From a virus (lineage: Duplodnaviria > Caudoviricetes): a stretch of 64,000 bases of DNA. Made by a program: the position numbers and the translations under genes. Positions 6,376 to 57,430 of this stretch are shown here, piece by piece. Positions within the stretch are counted from its first letter, which is position 1. Every line of letters starts with the position of its first letter. A model generated the notes under the pieces. The model did no database searches, was not told where the DNA came from, and worked only from the letters and a program-made list of their open reading frames with translations. The stretch lies in the IMG/VR virus record IMGVR_UViG_3300021400_000095; one strand, 5' to 3'.

Positions 6376-6711
6376 ATGGTTACAAGTTTTTTTGATGCAG
6401 TGTATCAAATCACAGAAGCTGTATATGGCACAATTTCTTATCTTACTTGTGTATTGAACAATATAGAAGGTAAGACTATTGACCTATCATATAATAGAGA
6501 TAATGTATATGGATATATCTTGATTGATGATAAGATTGTTGAAAAACAACTTCATAAGGTTTGTGTTGATGAAAATAATAATGTTAAAATTAAATTCATT
6601 GATAGTGATGAATATTATTATCTTAACACTTCCATTGATATTGAATTTATACAGACAACATTTAATATTGCACAATCTCTAAAAGATTATCCTATTGATG
6701 ATGTAATATAA
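6376..6711 (+). CDS. hypothetical protein
   Basis: ORF track. Confidence 0.75.
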   Translation: MVTSFFDAVYQITEAVYGTISYLTCVLNNIEGKTIDLSYNRDNVYGYILIDDKIVEKQLHKVCVDENNNVKIKFIDSDEYYYLNTSIDIEFIQTTFNIAQSLKDYPIDDVI

Positions 6712-19721: not shown

Positions 19722-19801
19722 AGGGGTGTACCTCAGCTGGCTTATACCCAGACATTAAATGAGTAACTTGGTGTATGCAGGTTCAAATCCTGTCACCCCC
19801 A
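19722..19801 (+). ncRNA. D-armless tRNA-like RNA with UAU anticodon and long variable arm
   Basis: GGGGTG/CACCCC acceptor, CTGG-CTTATAC-CCAG anticodon arm, ACATTAA/TTGGTGT arm, GCAGG-TTCAAAT-CCTGT T arm. Confidence 0.7.
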
Positions 19802-20246: not shown

Positions 20247-20355
20247 AGAAAACATACAGCAATCTTCAATATTAAAATTAAATTGATTTATTTGCTAAAT
20301 GGCTTTACCATTAAAGGTCTGATACTAACCCCAAAGTATTAAAAAATGTTTTCTG
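20247..20355 (+). ncRNA. 'ACAGCAA' stem RNA
   Basis: Closing helix AGAAAACAT-ACAGCAA...ATGTTTTCT-G with small internal hairpins; same motif upstream of the DUF2828 gene. Confidence 0.55.
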
Positions 20356-20379
20356 TTTATATAGTTCTTTGATAATATT

Positions 20380-20700
20380 GCCCCCGTGGTGGAACTGGTA
20401 AATGTTTGCCTACTACAATGTTAGTAAAACAACTCAAATTCGGTATCAGTTAGATAAGACTTTGTACGAATAAGCTGACTAAGAAAGCCTGAAGGTCCAT
20501 TTATATGGATAGCTGGGTAATACCGAGCCAAGCCTTAATAAAGGAAGGTGTAGAGACTTTAAGGGTTGCACTTTTAGTGAAGATAAAGTCCACTTAGTTG
20601 AAGTAATACTTTAGATGAAAATCTGTAACTAATTGAGACACAAAGGACTTAAAATCCTTTGGCCATTCTGGCCGTGCAGGTTCAAATCCTGTCGGGGGCA
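20380..20700 (+). tRNA. tRNA-Leu(UAA) split by a group I intron (exons 20380-20399 and 20636-20700)
   Basis: Spliced 85-nt cloverleaf GCCCCCG...CGGGGGCA with anticodon arm AAGGA-CTTAAAA-TCCTT and a long variable arm. Confidence 0.9.
20400..20635 (+). ncRNA. group I self-splicing intron (236 nt, no ORF) in the tRNA D-loop
   Basis: P/Q/R/S-like core (AAATTCGGT, AATACCGAGCCAAG, GAAGGTGTAGAGACT, GAAGATAAAGTCC); exon ends in U, intron ends in G; P1 GGT/GCC and P10 TGTTT/AGACA. Confidence 0.9.
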
Positions 20701-25590: not shown

Positions 25591-26976
25591 ATGACACAAG
25601 AGGAATATATCAATAAGATAAAGAGGTTTGACACTGTTGAAGAGTATGAATATGACAGGGAGACCAATTATATAAATCATTGGGTAAGTTTAACAAAGGA
25701 GACCAATGAGGTGAATTATGAGGTTGAAAAGAAATACAGGGAGCCATTGACATTTGTTATTCAGAGTGATGGTAATATTAGATGGAAAGCATCTAGGGCA
25801 AGTGATACAAGAACCATAAAATATAGTAAAGATAATGGGCAAACATGGATATCAATAGCAAGTTCTATAGATGGCAATAGTATTTCTGTAGAAAGTGGTA
25901 ACACTATACAATTTAGAGGTTATTATGAAAGTTATGGTACAAATTATTATTATAATTGTTTTAGTGGAAGCACATGTAGTTTTAGTGTTAAAGGTAATAT
26001 AATGAGTTTAATTAATAGTACAAATTTTGCTGCTTTAACAAGTTTGTCAGATAAATATTATACTTTTTATAACTTGTTCAAGGATTGTACTGGTTTAACA
26101 GATGCTAGTGAATTACTTTTACCTGCAACTACATTAACAAATTATTGTTACTATAGTATGTTTGAAGGTTGTACTAGTTTAATACAAGCACCAGAATTAC
26201 CAGCTACTACATTATCAGGAAGTTGTTATAACAGTATGTTTGCTGGTTGTACTAGTTTAACAACAGCACCTGCATTACCTGCTACTACTTTAGCATCTTA
26301 TTGTTATTCTGAAATGTTTTATGGATGTACTAATTTAACAACAGCACCTGTATTACCTGCCACAACATTAGCAGGTAGTTGTTATGCAAATATGTTCCAA
26401 GGTTGTACTAGTTTAACAACAGCACCAGAATTATCAGCAACAACATTAGCACATAGTTGTTATGCACTTATGTTTAAAGGTTGTACTAGTTTAACAACAG
26501 CACCTGCATTACCTGCTACTACATTAGCAGAAAGTTGTTATTCAAATATGTTTGAAAATTGTAGTAGTTTAGTAAATGCACCAGAATTACCTGCTACTGC
26601 ATTAGATAATTATTGTTATGCAAGTATGTTTAGTAATTGTACAAGTCTCACAACTGCACCTGCATTACCTGCTACTACATTAGCACAAACTTGCTATTAT
26701 TATATGTTTAGAGATTGTACAGGCTTAACTGATGCTCCAGAATTACCTGCCACTACATTAGTAGTTGATTGTTATAGATGTATGTTTCAAAGGTGTAGTA
26801 GTTTAAATTATATTAAATGTCTTGCAACTAATATTTCAGAAAATGGTTGTACAATAAATTGGGTACAAGGTGTGGCAAGTACTGGTACATTTGAATGTCC
26901 TGCTTCAACTAATTGGTCATCAAAAACAGGTACATCTGGTATTCCATCAGGATGGACAAGAGTTGATGCAAGTTAA
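25591..26976 (+). CDS. BspA-like leucine-rich-repeat protein
   Basis: 26-aa repeats APELPATTLAxxCYxxMFxGCTSLTT. Confidence 0.85.
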   Translation: MTQEEYINKIKRFDTVEEYEYDRETNYINHWVSLTKETNEVNYEVEKKYREPLTFVIQSDGNIRWKASRASDTRTIKYSKDNGQTWISIASSIDGNSISVESGNTIQFRGYYESYGTNYYYNCFSGSTCSFSVKGNIMSLINSTNFAALTSLSDKYYTFYNLFKDCTGLTDASELLLPATTLTNYCYYSMFEGCTSLIQAPELPATTLSGSCYNSMFAGCTSLTTAPALPATTLASYCYSEMFYGCTNLTTAPVLPATTLAGSCYANMFQGCTSLTTAPELSATTLAHSCYALMFKGCTSLTTAPALPATTLAESCYSNMFENCSSLVNAPELPATALDNYCYASMFSNCTSLTTAPALPATTLAQTCYYYMFRDCTGLTDAPELPATTLVVDCYRCMFQRCSSLNYIKCLATNISENGCTINWVQGVASTGTFECPASTNWSSKTGTSGIPSGWTRVDAS

Positions 26977-27044
26977 GATTTAGAAAAATAATTAACAATA
27001 ATAAATAAACCATGGGAAATTAATCTCATGGTTTATTATTTTAT

Positions 27045-27224
27045 TTACAATTGAGGTTTAATTGTATATGTAATATCAAGAAAGTCATTATATGTTTCTT
27101 TTATTTTGAAGTGTTTTGCTTTTTTTGCAGCAGAGTGGCTTGGGAAGGAGTCAATGAAATTATCATTTTCAAACAGATTCCATCTTTTAGGTTGATATAG
27201 TTTTTTCTTTTCTTCTTTTGTCAT
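27045..27224 (-). CDS. hypothetical protein (59 aa)
   Basis: Read manually: MTKEEKKKLYQPKRWNLF...KPQL*. Confidence 0.6.
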   Translation of the reverse strand: MTKEEKKKLYQPKRWNLFENDNFIDSFPSHSAAKKAKHFKIKETYNDFLDITYTIKPQL

Positions 27225-27242
27225 ATTTTAATTATTAAATAA

Positions 27243-27566
27243 TTAAACAGGGCTAATAGATTCCCATTTACAGATATATTTCCAAACAACATCATTTGCT
27301 TTAGCAAGCAATGAAGAATCAAACTGATAGAAGTCAAATCTTTTATTTGTACCTTCCATGACATGTTCACCAAAGCAAAGGCCAAAACCTGGTCTATATT
27401 GCCAAGATGTAATTTTTTTATTAAACAATTTTCCTGAAAGAAGAGTTACAAAATATATATCATCTTCATCATATTTTGTGAAATCAATGATTTCAATATG
27501 GTCTTGCAAATATTTTTTAATGAAATCATTTGCTTGCTCAGGGTTGAGAGTAATTACATTATACAT
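27243..27566 (-). CDS. hypothetical protein
   Basis: ORF track; sigma54-like motif on the - strand at ~27603-27618. Confidence 0.75.
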   Translation of the reverse strand: MYNVITLNPEQANDFIKKYLQDHIEIIDFTKYDEDDIYFVTLLSGKLFNKKITSWQYRPGFGLCFGEHVMEGTNKRFDFYQFDSSLLAKANDVVWKYICKWESISPV

Positions 27567-27672
27567 AAAAATAAAAATTTAAAAATCACATTGAAATAAC
27601 ATACAAGAATCATGCCATTTAATATTGCCAATAAGGAAAAAATCAATATATTTTATAATAAAGATAAGTTTT

Positions 27673-28023
27673 ATGGAGAATTATTTAGTTATACCATATT
27701 ATAAGAACAAGGCATATATAAGTTTTATAAAACAATTTTCAAACAAGGAAGAGGTTGTTGAATTTCTTGGTAGAGAGGATGGTGATTTAATAAGGGCAAT
27801 ACATGGTCATATTGAAAATAGTGAAAAAACAAATAAGGAAAAATCATATGACTTTGTTTGTTTGGATAATAATCTTCATTATTATATTCTTTATATTTCA
27901 GATAGTGGAAATAAATTATTTGAACCAGAATTATTAAAAACTGGAAAATATAAATTAAAGAAAATCAATATAAAATCTGATTCAATCATTCCAGAAAATA
28001 AAGTTTTTAATTTTGAAGGTTAA
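27673..28023 (+). CDS. hypothetical protein
   Basis: ATG at 27673, in frame with the track ORF. Confidence 0.7.
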   Translation: MENYLVIPYYKNKAYISFIKQFSNKEEVVEFLGREDGDLIRAIHGHIENSEKTNKEKSYDFVCLDNNLHYYILYISDSGNKLFEPELLKTGKYKLKKINIKSDSIIPENKVFNFEG

Positions 28024-28117
28024 ACTATAAATTATGTAATATGTTGATTATCCGAAAGTTACAAGACATTTTCTTATATTATTTACTATTTATATTAAAA
28101 TAATAAATAACAATAAT

Positions 28118-29776
28118 ATGGGAAAATATATACATTTATTTGAAAATGAATCTGCATTTGATACAGATTATCATGGTGACAATTATCTTGAACCTTGGGT
28201 GAGTTTAACTGAAGATATTGAAAGGGTTAATTATAATAAAACTGAAGAAGAAAAAGAAGAAGATGAAAAGAAAAAACTTCTCACACAACCATTAACATTT
28301 GAATTTCAAGAGGATGGTGATATTAAATGGAGAAGATATTCAACAAGTGCACCTGCAATTACTATAGAATATAGTAAGAATGGTGGTGAATGGACAAGTA
28401 TTACAAGTGCAACAGGCAATTCAGCACCAAGTATATCAGTTGTATCAGGTGATACTGTTCAATTTAGAGGTAATAATGCTGCATATACAACAACAAATAA
28501 ATCTTGGAATTATTTTAATACAACCAGTGTCTGTAAAATTAAAGGAAATATAATGAGTTTAATCAATTCAACCAATTTTAGTGGTTTAACTACATTATCT
28601 AATACATATGCATTATCTGGCTTATTTAGATATTGTAGTGGTTTAATAGATGCTTGTGAATTATTTTTACCAGCAACCACATTAGCAAATAGTTGTTATC
28701 AAGAAATGTTCCAGTGTTGTGCTAGACTTATAAATGTACCTGCATTACCTGCAACAACATTAGTAAATAGTTGTTATAAAGAAATGTTTAGTGGTTGTAC
28801 TAGTTTAACAGGAGTACCTTCAAATTATTTACCAGCAGAAACATTAGCATATGGTTGTTATTCAAATATGTTTGAAGGTTGTGGTAGATTAACAACAGCA
28901 CCAGAATTACCAGCAGAAACATTAGCACCAAGTTGTTATAATAGTATGTTTAGATGTTGTAGTGGATTAACACAAGGACCAAGTAGCATTGGTACATCTG
29001 CAACTACAGTAATGCCAGGTTCTGCTTGTACCTCAATGTTTAGTACTTGTACTAGTTTAACAACAGCACCAGAATTACCTGCTACTGCATTAGAAAATTA
29101 TTGTTATCAAAGTATGTTTTGGAGTTGTACAAGTCTTCTTAATGTACCAGAATTACCAGCAAAAATATTAACAACATATTGCTGTGGAAATATGTTTCAA
29201 GGTTGTACTAGTTTAACAGGAGTACCTTCAAATTATTTACCAGCAACTACATTAGCTAGTAGTTGTTATGCTTATATGTTTGATGGTTGTACAAGTCTTG
29301 TTAATGCACCTGAATTACCAGCAACAACTTTAGCAGGAGGTTGTTATCAAAATATGTTTAGAGGTTGTACAAGTCTTGTTAATGCACCTGAATTACCTGC
29401 TGAGACATTAGCAAATTATTGTTATAATAGGATGTTCCACGGTTGTACTAGTTTAACACAAGCACCTGCATTACCTGCAACAACATTAGCAAATAGTTGT
29501 TATGTTGAAATGTTTAAAAATTGTACAAGTATTGTTAATGCCCCAGAATTACCAGCAACTACATTAGCAAATAGTTGTTATGCAGGTATGTTTAATGGCA
29601 GTACTAATTTAAATTCTATTAAATGTTTGGCAACAGATATTTCTGCATCTCAATGTACATTAGGTTGGGTAAGTGGTGTGGCATCATCTGGTACATTTGT
29701 AAAAGACCCATCAATGACATCATGGACAACAGGTACTGATGGTATTCCAACCAATTGGACTGTTCAAGATGCATAA
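28118..29776 (+). CDS. BspA-like leucine-rich-repeat protein
   Basis: 26/29-aa LRR repeats; shared N-cap and C-cap. Confidence 0.85.
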   Translation: MGKYIHLFENESAFDTDYHGDNYLEPWVSLTEDIERVNYNKTEEEKEEDEKKKLLTQPLTFEFQEDGDIKWRRYSTSAPAITIEYSKNGGEWTSITSATGNSAPSISVVSGDTVQFRGNNAAYTTTNKSWNYFNTTSVCKIKGNIMSLINSTNFSGLTTLSNTYALSGLFRYCSGLIDACELFLPATTLANSCYQEMFQCCARLINVPALPATTLVNSCYKEMFSGCTSLTGVPSNYLPAETLAYGCYSNMFEGCGRLTTAPELPAETLAPSCYNSMFRCCSGLTQGPSSIGTSATTVMPGSACTSMFSTCTSLTTAPELPATALENYCYQSMFWSCTSLLNVPELPAKILTTYCCGNMFQGCTSLTGVPSNYLPATTLASSCYAYMFDGCTSLVNAPELPATTLAGGCYQNMFRGCTSLVNAPELPAETLANYCYNRMFHGCTSLTQAPALPATTLANSCYVEMFKNCTSIVNAPELPATTLANSCYAGMFNGSTNLNSIKCLATDISASQCTLGWVSGVASSGTFVKDPSMTSWTTGTDGIPTNWTVQDA

Positions 29777-29797
29777 AAAAAGTATATATTAAAGATA

Positions 29798-29826
29798 AAG
29801 GCTCAGAGGTAAATCTGAGCCTTTTG
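29798..29826. terminator. bidirectional intrinsic terminator
   Basis: AAAGGCTCAGA-GGTAAA-TCTGAGCCTTT between convergent genes. Confidence 0.75.
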
Positions 29827-29829
29827 TTA

Positions 29830-30060
29830 TTAGATTATTTGTTTTCCAACAACAGGGTTATTTGGTCTAATATATTTCCATCCATTTTTTTCCTCATGTT
29901 CAATAAGTTTATCAAAATCAAGTTGATATGCTTCAGGTAGTAGACCACCATCCATATAATAATTTCCATGAATTCTATAGATGTCAGTATTTACTTTAAT
30001 TGCATCACCTTCTTTTAATGGAATATCTTTAACAACAATATATTTCTTATCTGGTTTCAT
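29830..30060 (-). CDS. hypothetical protein
   Basis: ORF track; ATG at 30060. Confidence 0.7.
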   Translation of the reverse strand: MKPDKKYIVVKDIPLKEGDAIKVNTDIYRIHGNYYMDGGLLPEAYQLDFDKLIEHEEKNGWKYIRPNNPVVGKQII

Positions 30061-30751
30061 TATCAACAAATCTTAATTTAAGTCTTATTTTTACATCATT
30101 ATTTTCATCTGATTTGATACATCTTTTTTCAACCCTAAACATTTTTGTCAGACAAATCTTACTAAATGGTTTACCTTGTCCATTACATTGATGCAAAATC
30201 AAAGGGCATTTAATATCTTCATTTAATGGGAACAATTCAAATACATTACAAAAACCATAAGTATTTGGGTTAATATATAATCTTACCACATCATTGGTAA
30301 TCTTAAATGATATGATGTCATTAGGTGTTGGGAAATCAAGGTCAACAAATTCCAAATAATAATGATTAGTGCAATTATCCAAATTCTCTTTTGGTAAACT
30401 GGTTGTTGTAGTTGTATTAGAGACAAAATTTAATGGTGTTCCAAAAGCAGATGTTGAGGTTGTATCATAGACTGATTCCTTTACATTTTTAAGGCCAGTA
30501 ATATTTTTCCCATTTTCACTGAACAGTTTATCACCATTTTGGATAACTTTTGTGCCATTTTTAGTTGTTTTAATTTCTTGCTTCTTATTATTAAGAGTTG
30601 CATTCATTTTATCAACTAAAGTTTGGTCAATTTTATTTTCATTTGGTTTTTTTGTTACTTGGTTTTTAGTTGAGATAAGTTTAATTGGAATTTCTCTTTT
30701 AGTTACATTTGAGTTCATTCTTTTGATTAGCAATTTGTCTTTATCATTCAT
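30047..30751 (-). CDS. hypothetical protein
   Basis: ORF track. Confidence 0.75.
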   Translation of the reverse strand: MNDKDKLLIKRMNSNVTKREIPIKLISTKNQVTKKPNENKIDQTLVDKMNATLNNKKQEIKTTKNGTKVIQNGDKLFSENGKNITGLKNVKESVYDTTSTSAFGTPLNFVSNTTTTTSLPKENLDNCTNHYYLEFVDLDFPTPNDIISFKITNDVVRLYINPNTYGFCNVFELFPLNEDIKCPLILHQCNGQGKPFSKICLTKMFRVEKRCIKSDENNDVKIRLKLRFVDNETR

Positions 30752-30766
30752 AGTTTCAATATTTTT

Positions 30767-31630
30767 TTATAATATTATTTTTCTTATTTTATCTGTTATA
30801 TTTTTTACTGGAACAAGTTCATATGACCCATCATCTTTTAGCCAAATAATTCTTCTTCCAATAACTTTAAGGCCAATATCTTCAAGACAAGTTTGATATG
30901 CATTCAATTGAATTATATAATGTCCATAATCTTCATCATATATATCATCAAATGGATAATACATCATTTTATTATGTGATTTGGAGAATTCATTATATAA
31001 ATCTTTATTTGTTTTCCAGTCCATTATGATTAAGCCACTTTTTTCATCATTTGTTGGATGTTTATAATAACATAATAAATCAAATGTTCCAGCAAAGTTT
31101 TTACTATATTGAATTTTTGGATTTGCACTTGTATATACTTTTGTTTCAGGCAATACAACCCATAAGTTTTCAGGGAATTCATTCCAAAATTTAAGGGCTG
31201 CTTCCTCTTTTGGTCTTGTTGGTATTAACCATTTTTTTTCAGGAATATATTTGTATTTATTATCTTCTGTTATATTTTCAGGATGACCCATTTTTAGCCA
31301 TGATAATGATTCACCATATGCATGAACCTGTGTTCCTGTTACAGTTGCTTTAAGATTCTTGAATTTCCATTCATTAAGCCAATATTCAGGTGTTTCACCA
31401 TTTTTTTCTGCATATGCTTTTGCTTTCAGTTCACTATCAAATTCCTCATGAAATTGTGATACAAATGCTGAAACTGAAATTAATTCCTTGTCATGTAAAA
31501 AATATTTATGTCCTTCTTCAATAAAAACCAATTCATTAAAAGTATCCAAAATCTTTTCTCTGATTTTAGTTACCTCCAATGGTTCACCATCAACCTTTAT
31601 CTTATATTTATCCTCATTCCTTAATGGCAT
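30767..31630 (-). CDS. PD-(D/E)XK nuclease (phage exonuclease-like)
   Basis: GTQVH, PETKV, AGTFDLL, IMDWKTNK, QLNAY. Confidence 0.85.
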   Translation of the reverse strand: MPLRNEDKYKIKVDGEPLEVTKIREKILDTFNELVFIEEGHKYFLHDKELISVSAFVSQFHEEFDSELKAKAYAEKNGETPEYWLNEWKFKNLKATVTGTQVHAYGESLSWLKMGHPENITEDNKYKYIPEKKWLIPTRPKEEAALKFWNEFPENLWVVLPETKVYTSANPKIQYSKNFAGTFDLLCYYKHPTNDEKSGLIIMDWKTNKDLYNEFSKSHNKMMYYPFDDIYDEDYGHYIIQLNAYQTCLEDIGLKVIGRRIIWLKDDGSYELVPVKNITDKIRKIIL

Positions 31631-31653
31631 ATTTTTTTTGTATTAGTGAATTG

Positions 31654-32535
31654 TTATTTGAAAATGTCAAACATATTTTCTTTTGAAATATAATCAATTA
31701 TTTCAATATTTTCTGGTGATATTGTGTCCATTGTATAGACACCATTTTTCATTCTTGGGTCAAAATAAAATTTTGGATTATTTGTTGCTTTTGAAACATC
31801 AATTTTCAACAATGACCATCCATCATTTTTTTGGTAATTGAATTCTTTTTCAGCATTAAACTCATTGACCCATAAAACAAATTCTTTATTTGTTAGTTCT
31901 TTCATGAAAAAATATACTCTTTCAGGATTTGAATATTGATTCCATGATGAAAATTTTGGCTTAAGCCCATATTTGTTTATTTTATTTAAATATATGTTTG
32001 GGCAAATATGATATAGGTATTTATTTTTTATGACCTCTTCAGTTACATCAACATCAAATTTTTTTTCATATATTAATCTAATAAGATTATTATACCCATT
32101 TAACTTTTCATAAATGCCACAGAACCAACCATACTTTAACAAATATTTGTCAAAATCATTTTGGTTGAAATCATTTTCATTTACATTTATTTCTATTCTT
32201 TCAGTATTATTTTGGCTATATTTGTTATAAAATATTATACCATTATAATCATGATAATATTGTTGTTTATCCAAATAAAATAATATTTTGTTTTTTTCTG
32301 TTAAATCAGAACCATCATATAAATTAAATAATGATTTTAATGCAAAAATAACATTTTTAATTGGATATGTAGATATTAAGCCTTCTTTTATTAAATAAGG
32401 TTTTCTTTCCAACATAGTGGTATACATATTTCCAGCAGCATCATGTTTAGGTAATGTATTAAATAAAACTTCTTCAACTATTTTTTTAACCATTTTACCT
32501 AATCTTTTTTCATCTATTTTAATCTTTGTTGTCAT
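31654..32535 (-). CDS. protein with C-terminal ADP-ribosyltransferase/Tpt1-like fold
   Basis: YLYHIC...I.KYGLKPK...PERVYFF...LLKID...VYTMDTISPENI. Confidence 0.55.
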   Translation of the reverse strand: MTTKIKIDEKRLGKMVKKIVEEVLFNTLPKHDAAGNMYTTMLERKPYLIKEGLISTYPIKNVIFALKSLFNLYDGSDLTEKNKILFYLDKQQYYHDYNGIIFYNKYSQNNTERIEINVNENDFNQNDFDKYLLKYGWFCGIYEKLNGYNNLIRLIYEKKFDVDVTEEVIKNKYLYHICPNIYLNKINKYGLKPKFSSWNQYSNPERVYFFMKELTNKEFVLWVNEFNAEKEFNYQKNDGWSLLKIDVSKATNNPKFYFDPRMKNGVYTMDTISPENIEIIDYISKENMFDIFK

Positions 32536-32698
32536 TTTTGGTTGAATTTAATTGTTTTATTAATGCATCTCCCATCCTAATTGCCATTCTGGCAACAATA
32601 TCAGGTGATGCCTCTAATATTGTGCCAAGTTTTCCACTCTCTAATATTCCCTGCATTGCATTAACTGCTGCTGTAAATCTCATTTCTTCTTCTGTCAT
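32519..32698 (-). CDS. hypothetical protein
   Basis: MTEEEMRFTAAVNAMQG...DALIKQL; TATATTTGCA promoter upstream. Confidence 0.7.
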   Translation of the reverse strand: MTEEEMRFTAAVNAMQGILESGKLGTILEASPDIVARMAIRMGDALIKQLNSTKNDNKD

Positions 32699-32878
32699 GC
32701 AATATTTTCTTTTTGCAAATATATAAATAATTTTCATGATTAACAAATTGTATTTTATATATTTACTATTAATTATTGATATTCTCAAATCAACATAAAT
32801 CATTGATAATCCGAAAGTTATATGTATTTTTTCATCATTTGTTAATATTTATATTTGTATAAAAATCTATATTAAACT

Positions 32879-34066
32879 ATGAGTAAGTATATACATTATT
32901 TTAACAATGAAAATGATTTTGATGAAATGAGGTCAGTTGAAAAATATTATGAACCTTGGCTTAGTTTTACAAAACAAAATAAAACACAAACTGAAGATAT
33001 TGATAGAAGTGACTATAACAAAACTGAAGAAGAAAAGGAAAGAGAAAGACTTAAGTTTGTACCATTAACATTTGAAATTCAAAGTGATGGTAATATTATA
33101 TGGAAATCAACAAATACAGGTGTTACAAGAACCATAGAATATAGTAAAGACAATGGACAAACATGGACAAGTATTACAAGTGCAACAGGAGATACAGCAC
33201 CAAGCATTTCTGTAGAAAGTGGTGATACTGTTCAATTTAGGGGTGACAATACAGCATATGGTACAAGTGGTTCTTATTATAGTTGTTTTAGTGGAAATAC
33301 TGCACAATTTAGTATTAAAGGTAATGTAATGAGTTTAATTAACTCAACTGATTTTAGTGATTTAACAACATTAGAAAGTGCATATACATTTGGTTATTTG
33401 TTTAGAAATTGCACTGGTTTAACAGATGCAAGTAATTTACTTTTACCAGCAACTAAATTAGCAAGTAACTGTTATTCAGATATGTTTTATGGTTGTACTA
33501 GTTTAACAACAGCACCAGAGTTACCAGCATCAGCATTAACAGAAAGTTGTTATTCTGGTATGTTTTATAATTGTAATAGTTTAACAACAGCACCAGAGTT
33601 ACCAGCAACAACATTAGAATATTATTGTTATCAATTTATGTTTTATGGTTGTACTAGTTTAACAACAGCACCTGCATTACCAGCAACAACATTAGTAAGT
33701 TATTGTTATGAATATATGTTTCAAGGTTGTACAAACTTAGTACAAGCACCAGAATTACCTGCAACCACATTAACAAAACAATGTTATATGAATATGTTCC
33801 AAGGTTGTACTAGTTTAACAACAGCACCTACATTACCAGCTACTACATTAGCACAATATTGCTATTATCAAATGTTTAGTGGTTGTAGTAGTTTAAATTA
33901 TATTAAATGTTTAGCAACTAATATTTCAGCAACTGACTGTACAAAAAATTGGGTATCTGGTGTGGCTAGTACTGGTACATTTGTTAAACCAGCTTCTACA
34001 GATTGGTCATCAAAAACAGGTGATAATGGTATTCCAAATAATTGGACTGTTCAAGATGCAAGTTAA
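32879..34066 (+). CDS. BspA-like leucine-rich-repeat protein
   Basis: 26-aa LRR repeats. Confidence 0.85.
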   Translation: MSKYIHYFNNENDFDEMRSVEKYYEPWLSFTKQNKTQTEDIDRSDYNKTEEEKERERLKFVPLTFEIQSDGNIIWKSTNTGVTRTIEYSKDNGQTWTSITSATGDTAPSISVESGDTVQFRGDNTAYGTSGSYYSCFSGNTAQFSIKGNVMSLINSTDFSDLTTLESAYTFGYLFRNCTGLTDASNLLLPATKLASNCYSDMFYGCTSLTTAPELPASALTESCYSGMFYNCNSLTTAPELPATTLEYYCYQFMFYGCTSLTTAPALPATTLVSYCYEYMFQGCTNLVQAPELPATTLTKQCYMNMFQGCTSLTTAPTLPATTLAQYCYYQMFSGCSSLNYIKCLATNISATDCTKNWVSGVASTGTFVKPASTDWSSKTGDNGIPNNWTVQDAS

Positions 34067-34096
34067 TAATTAATTAAAAAAAATTATATTTGCATT

Positions 34097-34212
34097 AGTC
34101 CTAACAACCAAAGGACTTTCATGGTTAGCCATTAGCATTTTAAAAGATATTGGTGGGAGTAATTAGAATAGAATCAGTTTTAAAATAATATGAATCTGGT
34201 TCTATTTTTTTT
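34097..34212 (+). ncRNA. candidate sRNA with own promoter and terminator
   Basis: TATATTTGCA at 34085; hairpin AGTCCT/AGGACT; terminator AATAGAATCAG/CTGGTTCTATT plus U-run. Confidence 0.4.
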
Positions 34213-34267
34213 ATTATTTATAACTATTTATAAGAAAATAAGAAAGTAAAAAAATATAAATATATTA

Positions 34268-34888
34268 ATGACAGCACAAGATTATTTATTAAGTGGAGGT
34301 ACACCAGTATTTTATTCAGGTAATAGTGAAAATTTAGTATGGTGTTACACATTCAATGGTGTTGATGAGAATCTTCAATGTTATGATGTCAGTGTTGGCA
34401 AAGGAATGTTAGATGTTTCAAATTATGATAACATTCCAAGTGGACTAACAAAACTTACAGGATATAATAAAATTAAATTACCTGATGGTAATATATATGG
34501 ACTTGGGTTTAATAACATGTTATTTGGTAGTAATGAACAAGAAGAAGAAGCACCAAAGAGCAGTACCAATAATGTAACCAATCAACAAACAAAATATTCA
34601 GGTTTGATTTATTATAGTGGTGGTACACAATTTGTTGATAAATTAATTGATACAGGTGGTACATATCCTTCATTAATTTTAGTTGGTGAAAATGATGAAT
34701 ATAGTTTTTCTACACAAAATTCTAGTGAATTTGTACCAGCTGTTGCAGGAAATTATTTATTTGTAATTCCATGTAGTAATATGGCTGAAGATTCTTCACT
34801 TTACATTGGAACATTTTTAGGAAAAGATTTAACTGATTTTATTATATTAATGCAGGGTGGTACAAGTTCAGAAGGCCCAGTTGAATAA
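34268..34888 (+). CDS. hypothetical protein (paralogue of next gene)
   Basis: LSGxTP...YTFNG.D...GY.K shared with 34918. Confidence 0.8.
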   Translation: MTAQDYLLSGGTPVFYSGNSENLVWCYTFNGVDENLQCYDVSVGKGMLDVSNYDNIPSGLTKLTGYNKIKLPDGNIYGLGFNNMLFGSNEQEEEAPKSSTNNVTNQQTKYSGLIYYSGGTQFVDKLIDTGGTYPSLILVGENDEYSFSTQNSSEFVPAVAGNYLFVIPCSNMAEDSSLYIGTFLGKDLTDFIILMQGGTSSEGPVE

Positions 34889-34917
34889 AGAAAATAAAAT
34901 ATAAAAATATATAAAAT

Positions 34918-35547
34918 ATGGCAAATGTTGATATAATCTTAAGTGGTTTTACACCAAGTGAAAGAGAATATTCAAGTTATGGTGATAATGAACCAGTATA
35001 TGTATATACCTTTAATGGTTTTGATGCAAATGGTAATTCATTGGACCTTAGTAATGATAAAGGAACTTATAGTATACAAGGAAATGAAAATGGTCCAGTA
35101 TTGTTAGGCTATAGTAAAGCATCTATTGAAAATCAAGTTGTTGATGTTAGTGATTTTAATAACTATGGTGATAATAATAGTAGTGGTGGTGGTAGTGGTC
35201 CTTTGAGAGAAGCTAGTTCATCAAACTCATCTGCTGGCTTAACATCTTATTATGGTATGTTAAAATGTACTTTAAATAATAATGATTATTTATTAAAAAT
35301 TGTTGGACTTACTGTAAGTAATAATTTTATTCTACTTTATTTAGTAGATAATGATAGTAATTATATGGGGGGTATTTCTTCAGATGGTGTAGTAATGATA
35401 AGTGAATCTGAAAGTTCTGAGCCTTCAGAAGTTGATGCTGGTTGGGTAATTATTTTTGGTGATAATGTATTTACTAATGGTATAAGTGCTTATAATTATT
35501 TTAGTAAAATTTTAAACATTGAAAGTGGTGAAGAAGAGAATTTATAA
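34918..35547 (+). CDS. hypothetical protein (paralogue of previous gene)
   Basis: ORF track; terminator at ~35570-35610. Confidence 0.8.
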   Translation: MANVDIILSGFTPSEREYSSYGDNEPVYVYTFNGFDANGNSLDLSNDKGTYSIQGNENGPVLLGYSKASIENQVVDVSDFNNYGDNNSSGGGSGPLREASSSNSSAGLTSYYGMLKCTLNNNDYLLKIVGLTVSNNFILLYLVDNDSNYMGGISSDGVVMISESESSEPSEVDAGWVIIFGDNVFTNGISAYNYFSKILNIESGEEENL

Positions 35548-35723
35548 GTTAACATTATAAAATAATAAAAATAGCCATGAGTTAAAAATTCATGGCCATT
35601 TTTTTTTTTATTATTAAAATATTTAATTTTTTAAACATCAACTATTCTCCATGCAATTAAATAAAAAAAATTGACAATAATATTTAATATATGTATTTTA
35701 ATATAAAAAGTAGATATAATAAT

Positions 35724-36098
35724 ATGGGAGTATTTAAGAACAAGAATGAAGAATTCAAAATGAATGACATTGTTACCTTTATTGGAAAGGAGGTCAACAA
35801 GGAAAATTTTTCTAATGAGTGTTACATTATAGCAGGTTTTGGTTTTGAAAAGTTCAACAGGAAGCCATTTGCAATATTATTACCTGTAACAACAACAATT
35901 GAAGAAAATGCAGAGGAAGGTCAAGATAATACAGAGAGCACAAAATCAGATACTTCTTTAGAGTTACTGAGGGAGATTAAACCAAGAAAGGTAATTAATT
36001 TTTCCACAATAAAGAAAGTAAAGAATGTAGTTATTGAGAAAGATTCCAGCAAGAAAAAGCACATACCTGAATTGGTTGCTGTAAGGTACATTGATTAA
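35724..36098 (+). CDS. hypothetical protein
   Basis: ORF track; ATG at 35724. Confidence 0.75.
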   Translation: MGVFKNKNEEFKMNDIVTFIGKEVNKENFSNECYIIAGFGFEKFNRKPFAILLPVTTTIEENAEEGQDNTESTKSDTSLELLREIKPRKVINFSTIKKVKNVVIEKDSSKKKHIPELVAVRYID

Positions 36099-36352
36099 AT
36101 TTTATTGCCATCATCAAACATATTATCAATTTGAAAAAAGACAGGGTTGTCTGCCATATAAGGGGTAGTCATTTTCATTAAATAAAATTTCAATGTTCTA
36201 TCACCAGTATTAACTGATTCATCATTAACATAAGAATTAAATGGTGGGTTATTGGTTTTATATCCACTACATACTTCTGTTTTAGTATCAGATATAAACT
36301 TAAAAGTTTTATACAATGTATCTGGTGATAGAGTTATTTTTTTATGATTCAT
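36095..36352 (-). CDS. hypothetical protein
   Basis: ORF track; overlaps the helicase stop. Confidence 0.7.
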   Translation of the reverse strand: MNHKKITLSPDTLYKTFKFISDTKTEVCSGYKTNNPPFNSYVNDESVNTGDRTLKFYLMKMTTPYMADNPVFFQIDNMFDDGNKI

Positions 36353-37958
36353 GGCAATGTTCTTTTATTTTCAAAAATTCATTATATAAATCTTCAACAC
36401 CTGAATAAGATTTTTCAGGTGGGAATAGTTTTTCACTTATAAAGTTAAGAGATTTTTTTGCTCTTGTTATTGCAACATATAAAATATTTTGTTCAGCATT
36501 AATTTCCCATTGTTTTGTTGCCATTTTATTTGGCATCAAGGAAGGGCATAGGATATACACATTATCAGATTCCAAGCCTTTTGCTCTATGAACAGTTGTT
36601 AATTGTATTGCATTATTTTCATCAACCTTATGTTCAATAAACAGTTCATTAATTCTGTTAATAAGTGCTGTTTTATCTTTAATATTTTCAGCCAATGAAT
36701 TAAATGTCAATAGTTCATCATATGCAATCATAACATCTGATTCACCAACAACACTTTTTAGGTCAGTATGATAAATTTCTGCACAATTTTCCCAGCATTT
36801 AATTAAATTTTTTTCCAAACCCAATCTAATTTCATCAATATCATTTGTTTGGAAATTATTTAATAAACTAATTAAATTATTTGCAAAGTCATATCCTTTG
36901 ACATAAACTTGTTTATTTTGGTTAATCAATTGTATATACAATTTAACCAATGGTGATGTTAATCTACATAAAATCATATCACCATTTTTAATATTGTCAA
37001 AGCCAACATTATAATTGATTTCACCTTCAATTGCAGACTCTGATGGAACAAAATCATTAACTATTTCTCTTGCTCTTTCTGCAATTTTTTTTGCACATCT
37101 ATATGTTATATTTAATTTAAATTGCTTAATATTTGGTTTTTTATTAAATGTTTTAAATGCATCTTCATCAGAACCACACCATGCATTAATTGTTTGAAAT
37201 GAATCACCAAAAATTAAAAACCTTGTGTTTCTTTTCATGCAAATATTAATTAAATTTTGTTGTGCTGGTGATGAATCCTGTGCTTCATCTACAAAAATGA
37301 CATCATAAGATAACCATTTTATACCACCAACAATTCCAAGTTCATATGGAAGCCAAATCATATCAGTATAATCTATTTCATTAATATTTGTGCTTCCCCA
37401 TTTCATGATTTTTCTTACTGCTTCACATTCATTGGAAAAAATATTTACACCATATTTAATAACCATCTTATTGATTTCCTTAATGGATTGCATTAAATTA
37501 AATCTGGAATAATCCAATAATTTTTCAATATTTCTCATATATCTTGCCTTGTCAGCATTTGAAAAATTATCAAATTCATTATTGAACTCATGTAAATGCT
37601 GATGAATATAATCCCTATATTTGTTGTCATTAACAACAATATTCTTATATTTTGCTTGCAAAATCTTTAACCCAAGACTATGATATGTCATTACATCAAT
37701 GTGTTGCTTTCTTTCCTTAAATCTTTCTCTTAAATTTTCAGCAATATGCACATTATATGAAAGAACAAGAACAGATTTGTCCTCAGGAACAAAAAGTGTT
37801 CCAAGTTCAATTGTCTTTGATTTTCCACTACCAGCTCTTGATTCAATGGAAGCATTACCAATTCCATGTGCTATGAAATCACATATTCTAACTTGTTCAT
37901 CTGATGGTAAATTGTCTTTTAATATGCTTTTGAATCTGTTGTCTTGCTTATCTATCAT
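36342..37958 (-). CDS. UvrD/Rep-family SF1 DNA helicase
   Basis: AGSGKS, VDEAQD, GDSFQTI, TYRC, TVHRAKGLE, YVAITRAK. Confidence 0.93.
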   Translation of the reverse strand: MIDKQDNRFKSILKDNLPSDEQVRICDFIAHGIGNASIESRAGSGKSKTIELGTLFVPEDKSVLVLSYNVHIAENLRERFKERKQHIDVMTYHSLGLKILQAKYKNIVVNDNKYRDYIHQHLHEFNNEFDNFSNADKARYMRNIEKLLDYSRFNLMQSIKEINKMVIKYGVNIFSNECEAVRKIMKWGSTNINEIDYTDMIWLPYELGIVGGIKWLSYDVIFVDEAQDSSPAQQNLINICMKRNTRFLIFGDSFQTINAWCGSDEDAFKTFNKKPNIKQFKLNITYRCAKKIAERAREIVNDFVPSESAIEGEINYNVGFDNIKNGDMILCRLTSPLVKLYIQLINQNKQVYVKGYDFANNLISLLNNFQTNDIDEIRLGLEKNLIKCWENCAEIYHTDLKSVVGESDVMIAYDELLTFNSLAENIKDKTALINRINELFIEHKVDENNAIQLTTVHRAKGLESDNVYILCPSLMPNKMATKQWEINAEQNILYVAITRAKKSLNFISEKLFPPEKSYSGVEDLYNEFLKIKEHCHES

Positions 37959-38182
37959 TTTATCTTTTTTATACAAATATATAAAAATATTTTGTTTTTT
38001 TCAAACAATTATAATATATATTATTGAATCATCTTGAAAGTGAGCATATATTTTTTAGTTACTGAGTGCCTTTTCCTGCTAATGATTCAAAATAAGGGGA
38101 TATTTTTATCCCCTTATCTCTTTTTTGTTGGTTTACAAACTATTTAATATATAGAATAATTGTAATTTAGATATATTAAAAT

Positions 38183-40390
38183 ATGGGAAAATATTCAGAT
38201 AACATAACTCCTGAAAATTATATTAATTATTTGCATAAATTTGAAACAGTTGATGAATATGAAGAAGAAAAATATGGTTTTGGAAAACCATTTGTTTCAT
38301 GGACTGTTGAAGATGATGGTGTAAATTATAATAAAAATCTTGCAGACCCAAATATGCCATTAACATTTATTGTTTGTAGTGATGGGATTGTTAGATGGAA
38401 AGCATCTAATACAGGTGGTACAAGGTCAATACAATATAGTAAGAATGGTGGTACATGGATAAGCATTACTAGTGCCACAGGAAACACAGCACCAAGTATA
38501 TCAGTTGTTTCTGGTGATACTGTACAATTTAGAGGTGATAATAATAGTTATGCTATAGATAGTGCTAATGCAAAATATTCAACATTTTCTGGCACAACCT
38601 GTCAATTTAAAGTGCTTGGTAACATTATGAGTTTGATAAGTAGTGCTAATTATTCAACATTAAAAGAATTTCCAACAAATAGTAGTATTAATTTTGGATA
38701 TTTGTTTAGGGATTGTAGAACTTTAATTGATGCAACTTATTTAGTGTTACCTGCTACAACTTTAGCAGATAGTTGTTATATTGGTATGTTTCTTGGTTGT
38801 TATGGTTTAACTACTGTACCTGAATTACCAGCCACAACATTAGCACAACAATGCTATTGTATGATGTTTAGTGAATGTTATGCTTTAACAACATTGCCAT
38901 CTAATTTATTACCTGCAACAACAATGGCTGCAAGTGCATATACATATATGTTTTATGCTTGTACTGGTTTAACAGGTGTACCTGAATTACCAGCAACTAT
39001 ATTGGCAGATAATTGTTATGATAATATGTTTAGTGATTGTTATGGTTTAACAACATTGCCATCTAATTTATTACCTGCAACAACATTAACCCCTGCTTGT
39101 TATCAATATATGTTTGCTGGTTGTTATAGTTTAACTACATTGCCATCTACTTTATTACCTGCAACAACAATGGCTGCAAGTGCATATACATGTATGTTTA
39201 GTAGTTGTACTGGCTTAACATCAATACCATCTAATTTATTACCTGCCACCACCTTAGCACCATATTGTTATAATAGTATGTTTGGAAGATGTGATGGCTT
39301 AACATCAATACCATCTGATTTATTACCTGCTACTACATTAGCAGAGAAATGTTATAATATGATGTTTTATGATTGTTATGGTTTAACATCAATACCATCT
39401 AATTTGTTACCAGCCACCACATTAGCACCATATTGTTATAGTGAAATGTTTTGGAGTTGTTCTGGTTTAACATCAATACCATCAGGTTTCTTACCAGCCA
39501 CCACCTTAGCACCATATTGTTATAATAGTATGTTTTGGAGTTGTTATGGTTTAACATCAATACCATCTGATTTATTACCTGCCACTATTTTAGCAAATGG
39601 TTGTTATGATAATATGTTTGCTGGTTGTTATAGTTTAACTACATTGCCATCTACTTTATTACCTGCAACAACAATGGCTGCAAGTGCATATACAAGTATG
39701 TTTTGTGGTTGTAGTGGTTTAACATCAATACCATCAGGTTTCTTACCAGCCACCACCTTAGCACCACATTGTTATAGTAGGATGTTTGTTCATTGTGCTG
39801 GTTTGGAAAGCATTCCATCTGATTTATTACCTGCTACTACATTAGCAGATGTTTGTTATGCTAGTATGTTTTGTGGTTGTAGTGGTTTAACATCAATACC
39901 ATCTACTTTATTACCTGCCACTACCTTAGCACCACATTGTTATAGTGAAATGTTTATTTATTGTTCAGGATTAACCTCAGTACCATCTAATTTATTACCT
40001 GCTACAAGTTTATCTGGTGGAGAATATTGTTATCAGAGGATGTTTTGGAATTGTAGAAGTTTAACATCATTACCTTCTAATTTATTACCTGCAACTGAAT
40101 TAACAGAAGGTTGCTACTTTGGTATGTTTAGTGGATGTACTGTATTAACAACAGCCCCAGATTTACCTGCACCAACATTGATATCAAATTGTTATCAAAG
40201 TATGTTCCAAGGTTGTAGTAATTTGAATTATATTAAATGTCTTGCAACAAATATATCAACATCTAATTGTACATATAATTGGGTAAGATATGTTACATCA
40301 TCAGGTACATTTATCAAAGCAGCATCAATGTCATCATGGACAACAGGAAATAATGGTATTCCATATAATTGGACAGTTCAAGATGCTTAA
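38183..40390 (+). CDS. BspA-like leucine-rich-repeat protein (29-aa repeats dominant)
   Basis: Repeats IPSNLLPATTLAxxCYxxMFxxCxGLTS. Confidence 0.85.
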   Translation: MGKYSDNITPENYINYLHKFETVDEYEEEKYGFGKPFVSWTVEDDGVNYNKNLADPNMPLTFIVCSDGIVRWKASNTGGTRSIQYSKNGGTWISITSATGNTAPSISVVSGDTVQFRGDNNSYAIDSANAKYSTFSGTTCQFKVLGNIMSLISSANYSTLKEFPTNSSINFGYLFRDCRTLIDATYLVLPATTLADSCYIGMFLGCYGLTTVPELPATTLAQQCYCMMFSECYALTTLPSNLLPATTMAASAYTYMFYACTGLTGVPELPATILADNCYDNMFSDCYGLTTLPSNLLPATTLTPACYQYMFAGCYSLTTLPSTLLPATTMAASAYTCMFSSCTGLTSIPSNLLPATTLAPYCYNSMFGRCDGLTSIPSDLLPATTLAEKCYNMMFYDCYGLTSIPSNLLPATTLAPYCYSEMFWSCSGLTSIPSGFLPATTLAPYCYNSMFWSCYGLTSIPSDLLPATILANGCYDNMFAGCYSLTTLPSTLLPATTMAASAYTSMFCGCSGLTSIPSGFLPATTLAPHCYSRMFVHCAGLESIPSDLLPATTLADVCYASMFCGCSGLTSIPSTLLPATTLAPHCYSEMFIYCSGLTSVPSNLLPATSLSGGEYCYQRMFWNCRSLTSLPSNLLPATELTEGCYFGMFSGCTVLTTAPDLPAPTLISNCYQSMFQGCSNLNYIKCLATNISTSNCTYNWVRYVTSSGTFIKAASMSSWTTGNNGIPYNWTVQDA

Positions 40391-49505: not shown

Positions 49506-50231
49506 TTAAAATACCTCCCTATTTCCAAATTTATAAACAATTTCACCAAATCCTTCCTTTCTCCTTCTAAGTTCATTCAAGGTATCAGCACAAGGATTCA
49601 TATAACATTCAAATTCCATTGGAAATGAAAATCTCTTTAATCTGTCAGGATTATTATAATCAAGATTATTGGTCTTAATTAATGATGTATAATATTCATT
49701 ATCTGGATTATTCAAATCAACATCATCTGATGTTGCCTTTCCAACAATATCACCATTTCTATTAACATAATATGGTGGATTATCAGGGTCTTTAATCAAA
49801 ACACTATCTTGATTATACTTTCCACATAATTGAATTGCCAAAAGTTTTAATTTTGAAAAATCATCTATTTCTCCTGTTTTCTTCAAATGATTAAAGATAA
49901 TAAATGATGGTTCATAACTATCAACAATACCATCAGTACCATGATAGCCACCATATACAGGGAAATAACCATAGTCACAAGCCTTTAAATCATTAATAAG
50001 GCTTTTTGTGTTCTTATTATTAACATCATTAGGCTGGCCAGTTCTATTGGCTGAAACAATTACATAACCATCATTTCCATGCTTGTTAATAATTCTTGAC
50101 AATGTTTCCTCATTGAGTTTTTGCAAAGGATATTCATTGTCAATATTATATAATTCCTTGAAAATGGTTCTTCCATCAACTGCTTCACCAATTCTTTCCA
50201 TTAAATTCTTTATTTCATTTAAATGTCCCAT
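49506..50231 (-). CDS. phage hypothetical protein (LSRI...IVSANR...YGGY...KYNQDSVL)
   Basis: ORF track. Confidence 0.8.
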   Translation of the reverse strand: MGHLNEIKNLMERIGEAVDGRTIFKELYNIDNEYPLQKLNEETLSRIINKHGNDGYVIVSANRTGQPNDVNNKNTKSLINDLKACDYGYFPVYGGYHGTDGIVDSYEPSFIIFNHLKKTGEIDDFSKLKLLAIQLCGKYNQDSVLIKDPDNPPYYVNRNGDIVGKATSDDVDLNNPDNEYYTSLIKTNNLDYNNPDRLKRFSFPMEFECYMNPCADTLNELRRRKEGFGEIVYKFGNREVF

Positions 50232-55816: not shown

Positions 55817-57430
55817 TTACTGTACAAGAAGAAGTACTTCCTGAGTAAGTGCATCCTGAACAACTTCCTCCATTGTAGGCTGAACCTTCTTTCCAGTGTT
55901 AGGGTCAACCTTCACTTCACCTGAAAGGATGAGGCTGATAACAGAACCATCAAATCCTGAGACAAGATACTGTCCACCATGTTCCATGGTTGCAGGTACA
56001 TCCTTGCTTGCACCACTCCTACCTGCACAATACCACCAAACAACCTTGAACTCATCAACCCATTCACTTGGGAAAAATCTCCTAAGTTTTGCCATCATGG
56101 TCTCATAGTTAGTCCTACCACCACAACTATTAAACTGCATGTCACTAACAACAAGAAGAGTCTGTGGAAAGTCTTCAAGTGGCATTTCAGGATGTTCAAC
56201 CCTGGTCTTACAAATCAGGTCAATCAAACTCTGATAATTAGTACCACCCCAAGCAACTTTGCTATTCTGGATTTGGAACCACTTGTCAACAAAACTGTCT
56301 CCCTTAAGTGTCTTAAGAGTTGAAGTGTCATCAAACATTGCCACAACATTGTGGAATGCACCCTTGTTCAATTCTGAGAAATAAATTCCCAAAGAAACAC
56401 AGACATCAAAAGAAGTAAGTCCATTAGGACCACCATTAATAGGGCATGTCATAGAACCTGAGGTGTCTAGTGCACAAAGCACATTACCATTAATTGCACC
56501 ATTATTCTTAGATGCAGTTTCAATAAGATTCTTGAACTGCTTGTCAATGGTAATCTTTGTTACATCAGTAACTTCACCATAACTAGGCAACTTCATAGCA
56601 AGTTCAAATGGATAACCATTAAACTTAGCAACAGGCTGTTCCATAAGCCACTTAATATAACTGTTCTTAAGGTTGTGATTAGTAAGGAACTTTCCACTCA
56701 CAAGATTAAGAAGAGCCTTACCAGGAATAGTATTCCACTTAATGTTAGAATAGTTCCTTGCACAAATGGTCCTCTGGAATTCATGTGCCTTACCTGTTGA
56801 CTTGAACTCTCTATAGTCCTTCATAGACCAACCAACATACTTAGCAAAATCCTTTGCAAGCTGATTGGTAGACTTAGCCCAATCAGTAGTACAAAGCTTG
56901 TTACTCCTGATTCTAGGCATATACTTCTTAACAAGGTCCCTATGATTATCATCATTGATACCAAGAGCAATGACATCAAAGAACTTTTCCTTATCCAAGG
57001 AATCATCCATTGAAAGAAGCACCCAAAGGTCCTTCCAAGAACCAACAACAGGGAGAAGCCAAAGATTCCTATAGAATTCATCAGCATGATACCTTGCAAT
57101 CCAAAGGAGTCTCTTGAAAGATTCATCCTTTGCACCCTGTCCCTTCTGAACCTTTTCAGTCTTATCACCACCAATGATATTAGACTGTCTGGTAATCATT
57201 CTAAGGTAAAAAGGAAACCTGAGGGCATTGACAGGATTTTCACCCCAAAGAGTGGCCTGTTCAGCCCAAACAGTGTTAATGTCCCTACCTCTTGCAGTAC
57301 CTGCATGAGCAAACTGGTCAAGAAGTGCAGAACCTGCACTTGCATATGAAACTGCACCATTTTCAGTCCTTGCACCATTAGCACCAGCACCAATTGTGTT
57401 CACCTTAATAAAACTATTCATATTTTCCAT
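55817..57430 (-). CDS. DUF2828-family protein with C-terminal vWA domain (Ro60/TROVE-like architecture)
   Basis: TENGA, KGQG..E, GSWKDL, KYMPR, LDTSGSM (MIDAS), WGGTN, VSDMQF, VSGF. Confidence 0.85.
   Translation of the reverse strand: MENMNSFIKVNTIGAGANGARTENGAVSYASAGSALLDQFAHAGTARGRDINTVWAEQATLWGENPVNALRFPFYLRMITRQSNIIGGDKTEKVQKGQGAKDESFKRLLWIARYHADEFYRNLWLLPVVGSWKDLWVLLSMDDSLDKEKFFDVIALGINDDNHRDLVKKYMPRIRSNKLCTTDWAKSTNQLAKDFAKYVGWSMKDYREFKSTGKAHEFQRTICARNYSNIKWNTIPGKALLNLVSGKFLTNHNLKNSYIKWLMEQPVAKFNGYPFELAMKLPSYGEVTDVTKITIDKQFKNLIETASKNNGAINGNVLCALDTSGSMTCPINGGPNGLTSFDVCVSLGIYFSELNKGAFHNVVAMFDDTSTLKTLKGDSFVDKWFQIQNSKVAWGGTNYQSLIDLICKTRVEHPEMPLEDFPQTLLVVSDMQFNSCGGRTNYETMMAKLRRFFPSEWVDEFKVVWWYCAGRSGASKDVPATMEHGGQYLVSGFDGSVISLILSGEVKVDPNTGKKVQPTMEEVVQDALTQEVLLLVQ

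Follow-up and report, generated by a model that had tools for sequence, protein, structure and literature searches.

The tRNA-Leu(UAA) gene of a large phage is predicted, from the letters of its DNA, to be split in the D-loop by a self-splicing group I intron. The window (the whole stretch of 64,000 nucleotides that was analyzed, IMG/VR record IMGVR_UViG_3300021400_000095) carries the insertion at 20400-20635, and the probability that this is a spliced group I intron, with its exons joined at 20399/20636, is put at roughly 87%. The group I class is a known one, and the novelty lies in the site of the insertion and in the peripheral structure of the ribozyme.

The split gene and its predicted product

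The gene is composed of two exons and the insertion between them, as follows:

20380-20399, plus strand: tRNA-Leu(UAA) exon 1, with the 5' strands of the acceptor and D-stem and the D-loop up to U20; the U at position -1 is 20399
20400-20635, plus strand: predicted group I intron, 236 nt, without an ORF, with the terminal G at 20635
20636-20700, plus strand: tRNA exon 2, starting from A20a, with the anticodon TAA at 20650-20652, a long variable arm, the T arm and the discriminator A; CCA is not encoded

The insertion site is U20/A20a, by the numbering of the E. coli tRNA-Leu. The coordinates of the insert in the sequence-only reading were exact (236 nt, with G as the last base), and its description as ORF-less also held, given that there are no plus-strand ORFs of at least 35 aa in 20400-20635. 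On the same scan, the intron also lacks the endonuclease ORF that is a feature of homing introns.

The joining of the exons produces the complete 85-nt tRNA-Leu(UAA) that had been proposed, with an intact 7-nt anticodon loop, which ARAGORN calls at its default threshold. This joined tRNA has a three-pair D-stem, G18G19, U20-A20a, a long variable arm, A73 and the anticodon UAA, that is, a type II cloverleaf. Its D-loop and anticodon arm match those of intronless phage genes, and the uninterrupted junction, with the same D-loop and anticodon arm, is present in at least 118 viral (phage) stretches, which indicates that the predicted spliced product is an ordinary natural sequence.

A scan of possible joins with ARAGORN was rejected as a means of finding the junction, because the program accepts many of them and does not discriminate, so the junction cannot be established with ARAGORN by itself. 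The simple rules of P1 and P10 pairing allow four pairs of ends, with the alternatives including a U at 20390 and a G at 20600. Only one of the four, 20399/20635, both restores the tRNA and follows P9.0, and only the 20399/20636 join restores the D-loop of the intronless phage genes. These observations bear on the possibility of a dead gene, in which the ribozyme would have inactivated the tRNA, or in which a different junction (the U at 20390, or the G at 20600) would be used. While the alternative ends satisfy the simple pairing rules equally well, this reading is very unlikely, given the junction itself and the behavior of the tRNA stems, which remain paired even where both partners, hundreds of intron bases apart, have changed. 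In L242, which belongs to the lineage of the window, the intron is identical at 235 of the 236 positions, while about 8 of the 85 exon positions differ, with a compensatory change of an acceptor pair from C-G to U-A. In L103, of the same lineage, where the intron is 96.6% identical, there are compensatory changes in P2 and P9 and, in the exons, across the intron, in the anticodon stem. The acceptor stems of Lak C1 and B1 are wholly different and yet paired. The compensatory changes in the tRNA stems of such close relatives suggest that the spliced tRNA is under selection.

Lak C1, Lak B1 and the complete 204-kb phage yielded no uninterrupted gene of the same Leu(UAA) pattern, whereas an intronless Leu(UAA) gene is present at the syntenic locus of Lak A1. 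The codon UUA is the most common leucine codon of the phage, accounting for 47% of the Leu codons in 25 window ORFs. From these observations and the compensatory stem changes, we infer a working tRNA that would be charged with leucine and used in translation.

The sequence-only reading had anticipated that tRNA finders would miss the gene, and neither ARAGORN nor Rfam, at its gathering score, calls it. The only call made by ARAGORN in the window is a tRNA-Met, and, with its intron option, the program miscalls the split Leu gene as a tRNA-Cys. In cmscan, Intron_gpI (RF00028) matches positions 20361-20610 with 22.7 bits (E 0.0039), below the gathering score of 50 bits. This value exceeds the cut-offs of 18-20 bits for the introns of bacterial tRNAs in Williams 2020 (bioRxiv 10.1101/2020.01.27.920355). 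The tRNA inventories of phages are likely to be undercounted, given that ARAGORN and the one systematic intron mapper look at the anticodon loop only.

Anatomy of the ribozyme and its predicted splicing

The helices P1 to P10 were assigned by hand, with every pair being checked, and are arranged as follows:

20403-20410, plus strand: internal guide sequence; its 20408-20410 part pairs with the final three exon-1 bases as P1, and its 20403-20407 part with 20636-20640 as P10
20411-20426, plus strand: P2 hairpin, with compensatory changes in L103, L088, Lak and L313
20430-20435 with 20563-20568, plus strand: P3, with four distinct, fully paired sequences across four lineages
20440-20445 with 20521-20526, plus strand: P4
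20446-20451 with 20473-20478 (20446-20478 overall), plus strand: extra helix of six pairs, between P4 and the A-rich J4/5
20487-20489 with 20516-20518, plus strand: P5, with the A-rich J4/5 and J5/4 on either side
20495-20510, plus strand: P5a hairpin
20527-20549, plus strand: P6 and P6a
20553-20559 with 20586-20591, plus strand: P7, with the bulged A20554 and the guanosine-binding pair G20555-C20590
20569-20579, plus strand: P8
20592-20599 with 20627-20634, plus strand: P9.0, which closes two hairpins, at 20600-20612 and 20613-20624 (GAAA loop)

The elements named by the sequence-only reading are all recovered in this arrangement. In P1, the exon GGU pairs with GCC at 20408-20410, and the U20399.G20408 wobble at the 5' splice site is present in all the lineages examined, while P10 consists of five pairs, one of them G.U, and the terminal G20635 comes directly after P9.0. 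The group I core is composed of P3 and P7, with the G-binding pair, and the P4-P5-P6 domain, and J3/4 is AAU. By every structural feature testable, the window ribozyme is predicted to be a group I intron, and it falls outside the classical Leu(UAA) 34/35 class, in which the insertion is located between U34 and A35, as the anticodon loop is whole here and the site comes after U20. The absence of P7.1/P7.2 also sets it apart from subgroup IA. An extra helix after P4 is not known from subgroup IC3.

The 19 family loci that were parsed, having been selected on the 3' strand of the extra helix, all contain this helix, with a loop of 17-104 nt, and in all of them P4 is paired at 6/6 positions, in three sequence variants. 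An alternative pairing for P5, 20447-20452 with 20510-20515, was discarded, given that it breaks in most of the homologues, in which the extra helix holds.

The folding energy of the single sequence is no better than that of shuffled sequences (z -1.02), and the predicted pairing probabilities are low for P4, P6 and P7, which the thermodynamic prediction does not recover. The support for the structure is therefore comparative, with none coming from thermodynamic folding by itself. This weak predicted pairing of the core, in an AU-rich ribozyme (35% GC), would be compatible with an intron that is real but does not splice by itself, either because it requires a protein of the host or phage, or because it is slow, acting as a timer of the tRNA supply. 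The short P1, with only three exon pairs (another GGU, with its last base at 20390, could form an equivalent helix), points in the same direction, as does the existence of a lineage with a terminal A. The P10 helix, in turn, overlaps two bases of the 3' strand of the D-stem, which means that the two folds compete. Even so, assisted or slow splicing is rather improbable, because the catalytic elements are all intact and covary, and because the Azoarcus tRNA intron, another ORF-less ribozyme of about this length, is efficient at splicing itself in vitro (PMC13168695).

Splicing with the ordinary chemistry of group I introns is the expected process. In this process, the phage would transcribe a pre-tRNA-Leu(UAA) with a compact group I ribozyme in the D-loop, the guide sequence of which would set the U20.G wobble by pairing with the three bases at the end of exon 1. 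A free guanosine, occupying P7, would then cleave after U20, P10 would align exon 2, and the terminal G would enter the G site, with U20 being joined to A20a. The product would be a normal type II tRNA reading UUA, with its CCA supplied by the enzymes of the host.

Homologues and turnover at the D-loop site

The search for further D-loop cases showed that three additional phage lineages have homologous introns (71-75% identical, with compensatory changes in the helices) at this site. The core helices all pair in the four lineages, over a range of intron identity of 71-100%, with changes on both sides in P3, P4, P6 and P7. In the phage contigs L088, L093 and L098 (68-204 kb), the D-loop intron has 215 nt (L088:1394-1608, minus strand) and is 71% identical to that of the window. 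Judged from P10, P9.0 and the D-loop alike, the intron of this lineage would end in A instead of G; its P7 G-C pair is intact, and P8 is nearly absent. In Lak C1, Lak B1-B9 and L105, the D-loop intron has 308-309 nt and is 72% identical to the window intron; it is followed by an exon of 15 nt and then by a second, group-I-type intron of 340-348 nt at 34/35, and the removal of both introns produces a tRNA-Leu(UAA). The Lak intron also carries a peripheral insertion of 72 nt, which led plain MAFFT to misalign it. The fourth lineage is represented by L313 (IMGVR_UViG_3300011005_000050, a 263-kb contig), with a D-loop group I intron of 285 nt, 75% identical to that of the window, in which two P7 pairs are exchanged. 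The same gene has a coreless insert of 84 nt in the anticodon loop and an IA-like group I insert of 264 nt after U54, in the T-loop, and a tRNA-Leu(UAA) results when all three are removed. The genes with more than one insert are the following:

L001:1495-2240 (Lak-C1): two-intron tRNA-Leu(UAA), D-loop and 34/35
L002:1494-2248 (Lak-B1): two-intron tRNA-Leu(UAA), D-loop and 34/35
L105:3459-4211: two-intron tRNA-Leu(UAA), D-loop and 34/35
L313:4596-5318: four-exon tRNA-Leu(UAA), with the D-loop intron, anticodon-loop insert and T-loop insert

A covariance model based on the window, L103 and L088, and built without Lak or L313 sequences, detected the introns of Lak, at 100.7 bits, and of L313, at 74.2 bits, and set their boundaries at the same two points. 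In the alignment of 23 matches fitted by the model, 93% of the cells pair, a figure inflated by the fitting, in comparison with 31-40% when the partners are slid. A loose pattern for the 5' junction returned mostly chance matches, and a single scan of prokaryote genomes with a narrow pattern returned seven matches, all by chance in non-tRNA DNA, with no bacterial chromosomal case.

All the sources are metagenome assemblies, which makes an assembly artefact conceivable but extremely improbable. Part of the 352,732-bp metagenome contig ERZ28612966 (ENA), from a sample series that is presumably of sheep rumen, is identical to the window DNA, as is a separate Logan contig. Both contain the same intron, which is also present in other samples (L242 and L103) and in the curated genomes of ten Lak phages.

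The alleles at the locus turn over. The near-identical phages L239 and L240 have a different Leu(UAA) allele, in which the D-loop is intact and a 432-nt intron lies at 34/35, whereas in L242 the D-loop allele sits before the decayed remains of an allele with the 34/35 intron. One possible but doubtful addition to the main explanation is that the intron is kept as a shield, in which case the interruption of the D-loop would destroy the target of the free-standing endonucleases of competing phages. The turnover of the alleles would be consistent with this, as would the stacking of the introns, with two in Lak C1/B and three inserts in L313, and the organization of Lak A1, in which an intronless, diverged allele is followed by an ORF with a putative nuclease-like motif at its C-terminus:

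L231:253-1056 (Lak-A1): zinc-finger ORF, 267 aa with TAG read as Gln, directly after the intronless Leu(UAA) allele

This ORF has no nuclease match in Pfam, PHROGs or PDB, however, no endonuclease gene was recognized beside the tRNA of the window, and the uninterrupted gene is kept in the 118 or more phage stretches mentioned above. Plain selfish accumulation accounts for the same pattern, and the turnover of the alleles fits the two processes alike.

A second family of introns is found at or near 34/35 of the phage Leu(UAA) genes (L239:7027-7545, L240, L242:7230-7650, L332 and L333), with the L332 copy carrying an HNH ORF. An insert of this family at L103:420-850 (minus strand) lies between two short complementary ends of an RNA that is not recognizable as a tRNA, with no Rfam match.

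Relatives, known systems and genomic surroundings

On its predicted structure, the window intron is an ORF-less member of a family of phage group I introns that is marked by the extra helix after P4 and is found mostly in mRNAs. Most of the other members interrupt phage protein genes, such as the dnaE of Bacillus phage G and of Lactobacillus phage SA-C12, and these introns, like that of the L085 helicase, share P4, the extra helix and the P5 region with the window intron. They differ from it in being located in mRNAs, several of them with an endonuclease ORF, whereas the window intron lies in a tRNA and has none. The closest match outside the tRNAs is L085 (81.6% over 125 nt, E 2e-24), where the intron interrupts helicase motif VI and carries a NUMOD4-HNH ORF. 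Its guide sequence is near-identical to that of the window, and the join that restores QRVG-RILR corresponds to the predicted junction GGU|AGA, which has the same letters as that of the window. The 3' part of the second-family 34/35 intron also matches the 3' part of the L085 intron, which suggests modular exchange.

An intron similar to that of the L085 helicase is a likely source of the tRNA intron. Reverse splicing from such an mRNA into the D-loop would be the simplest route, and the odds of an origin in a phage mRNA with the letters GGU|AGA at its splice junction are only a little short of even. Since then, the intron has probably spread between phages together with the tRNA gene that contains it. 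The tree of the family cores is too short to be informative on the direction of transfer. A more elaborate scenario, which is unlikely as a whole, would make the tRNA-Leu(UAA) genes of jumbo phages a battleground, in which an undescribed group I subfamily, with the extra helix after P4, would have jumped by reverse splicing from a helicase mRNA into the D-loop at GGU|AGA. The D, anticodon and T loops would then accumulate introns (two in Lak C1/B, three in L313), each intron shielding the gene from rival endonucleases, with the order of splicing being set by the middle exon of 15-17 nt, and one lineage splicing with a terminal A.

The D-loop site had been described in advance as atypical, and no published group I intron in the D-loop of a tRNA was found in a literature search that left subscription journals largely uncovered. 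Williams 2020 (bioRxiv 10.1101/2020.01.27.920355) recognized 21 site classes of group I introns in bacterial tRNAs, with only eight positions, in the anticodon loop, being tested, and, outside this loop, a group I intron in the T-loop of the tmRNA (343 genes). The bacterial introns of the anticodon loop (Leu-UAA 34/35, fMet, Ile-CAU and Arg-CCU) are similar to that of the window in being small and ORF-less, with a U at -1, a terminal G and a P1 of three exon pairs, and the cyanobacterial Leu-UAA intron interrupts the same tRNA. In contrast with these introns, the window intron is located at U20/A20a of the D-loop, leaves the anticodon loop intact, has the extra helix after P4, and has the introns of phage mRNAs as its nearest relatives. 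The tmRNA intron resembles it in that a tRNA-shaped RNA is interrupted in a loop that is not the anticodon loop, but it lies in the T-loop of a tmRNA, and not in the D-loop of a decoding tRNA; the group-I-like insert of L313 represents, by comparison, a T-loop case in a true tRNA. Introns of other classes are known from the D-arm, such as the archaeal bulge-helix-bulge introns and the group II intron of the plastid trnG(UCC), which occupy the same region but depend on a protein endonuclease or on the lariat chemistry of group II, rather than on guanosine. Introns in tRNAs have also reportedly been described in the Patescibacteria.

The Lak megaphages provide an example of interrupted tRNA genes in the jumbo phages of the gut, and the same genomes contain the homologue of the window intron. 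The portions of Devoto et al. 2019 (PMC6784885) considered here describe "enigmatic" introns in the Phe, Gly, Thr and Tyr tRNAs, with no class assigned, tabulate fewer Leu tRNAs for Lak C1 and B than for A1/A2, and make no mention of the Leu(UAA) gene with two introns (C1, B1-B9). As far as these portions of the account extend, then, a tRNA with two introns had gone unreported in much-studied genomes.

The cases described here add another loop of the decoding tRNAs to the sites of group I introns, and provide small, protein-free test cases of how a ribozyme picks a P1 of three pairs inside the folded elbow of a tRNA. The Leu genes with multiple introns bear on the order in which two or three introns exit from one tRNA, while the GGU|AGA match bears on the movement of introns between mRNAs and tRNAs by reverse splicing at matching junctions. 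The L088 lineage bears on the question of whether a terminal A is tolerated; an intron with a terminal A is also said to occur in Coxiella.

The window has 29% GC and is packed with small ORFs, with matches to phage families, and its UvrD helicase is closest to those of Bacteroides phages (about 32%). No structural genes were found among the window ORFs that were scanned. From these features, we infer that the source is a jumbo phage, perhaps of the Bacteroidota. Other genes of the window include a member of the SAM lyase family (49506-50231, minus strand), a DUF2828/DUF7788 gene (55817-57430, minus strand) and four paralogues of phrog_9915 (25591-40390).

A number of other elements are located in the vicinity of the Leu gene. 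At 19722-19801, there is a tRNA-like gene (Rfam tRNA, 29.2 bits) that lacks the D-arm; its variable arm is long, its anticodon position reads UAU, and its sequence hardly varies in L239, L240 and L242. A normal tRNA-Ile(UAU) is located close to the Leu gene of L103. The stretch at 20247-20355, immediately upstream of the Leu gene of the window, contains a small structured RNA with an ACAGCAA motif, which is highly conserved in L239, L240 and L242. The leader motif TTCTTTGA, at 20363-20372, some 10 nt before the tRNA, also precedes the tRNA genes in L103 and L313, and resembles the boxA antitermination element. An intergenic repeat beginning with TGGCATGATT, which is likely to be a phage promoter, is present at 616, 4296, 14996, 15831, 19599, 19809 and 21358. 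A promoter scan returned nothing above chance. A second type of ribozyme was recorded in the L088 contig, where a type III hammerhead at 6582-6637 (minus strand) scores 52.1 bits, above the Rfam gathering score.
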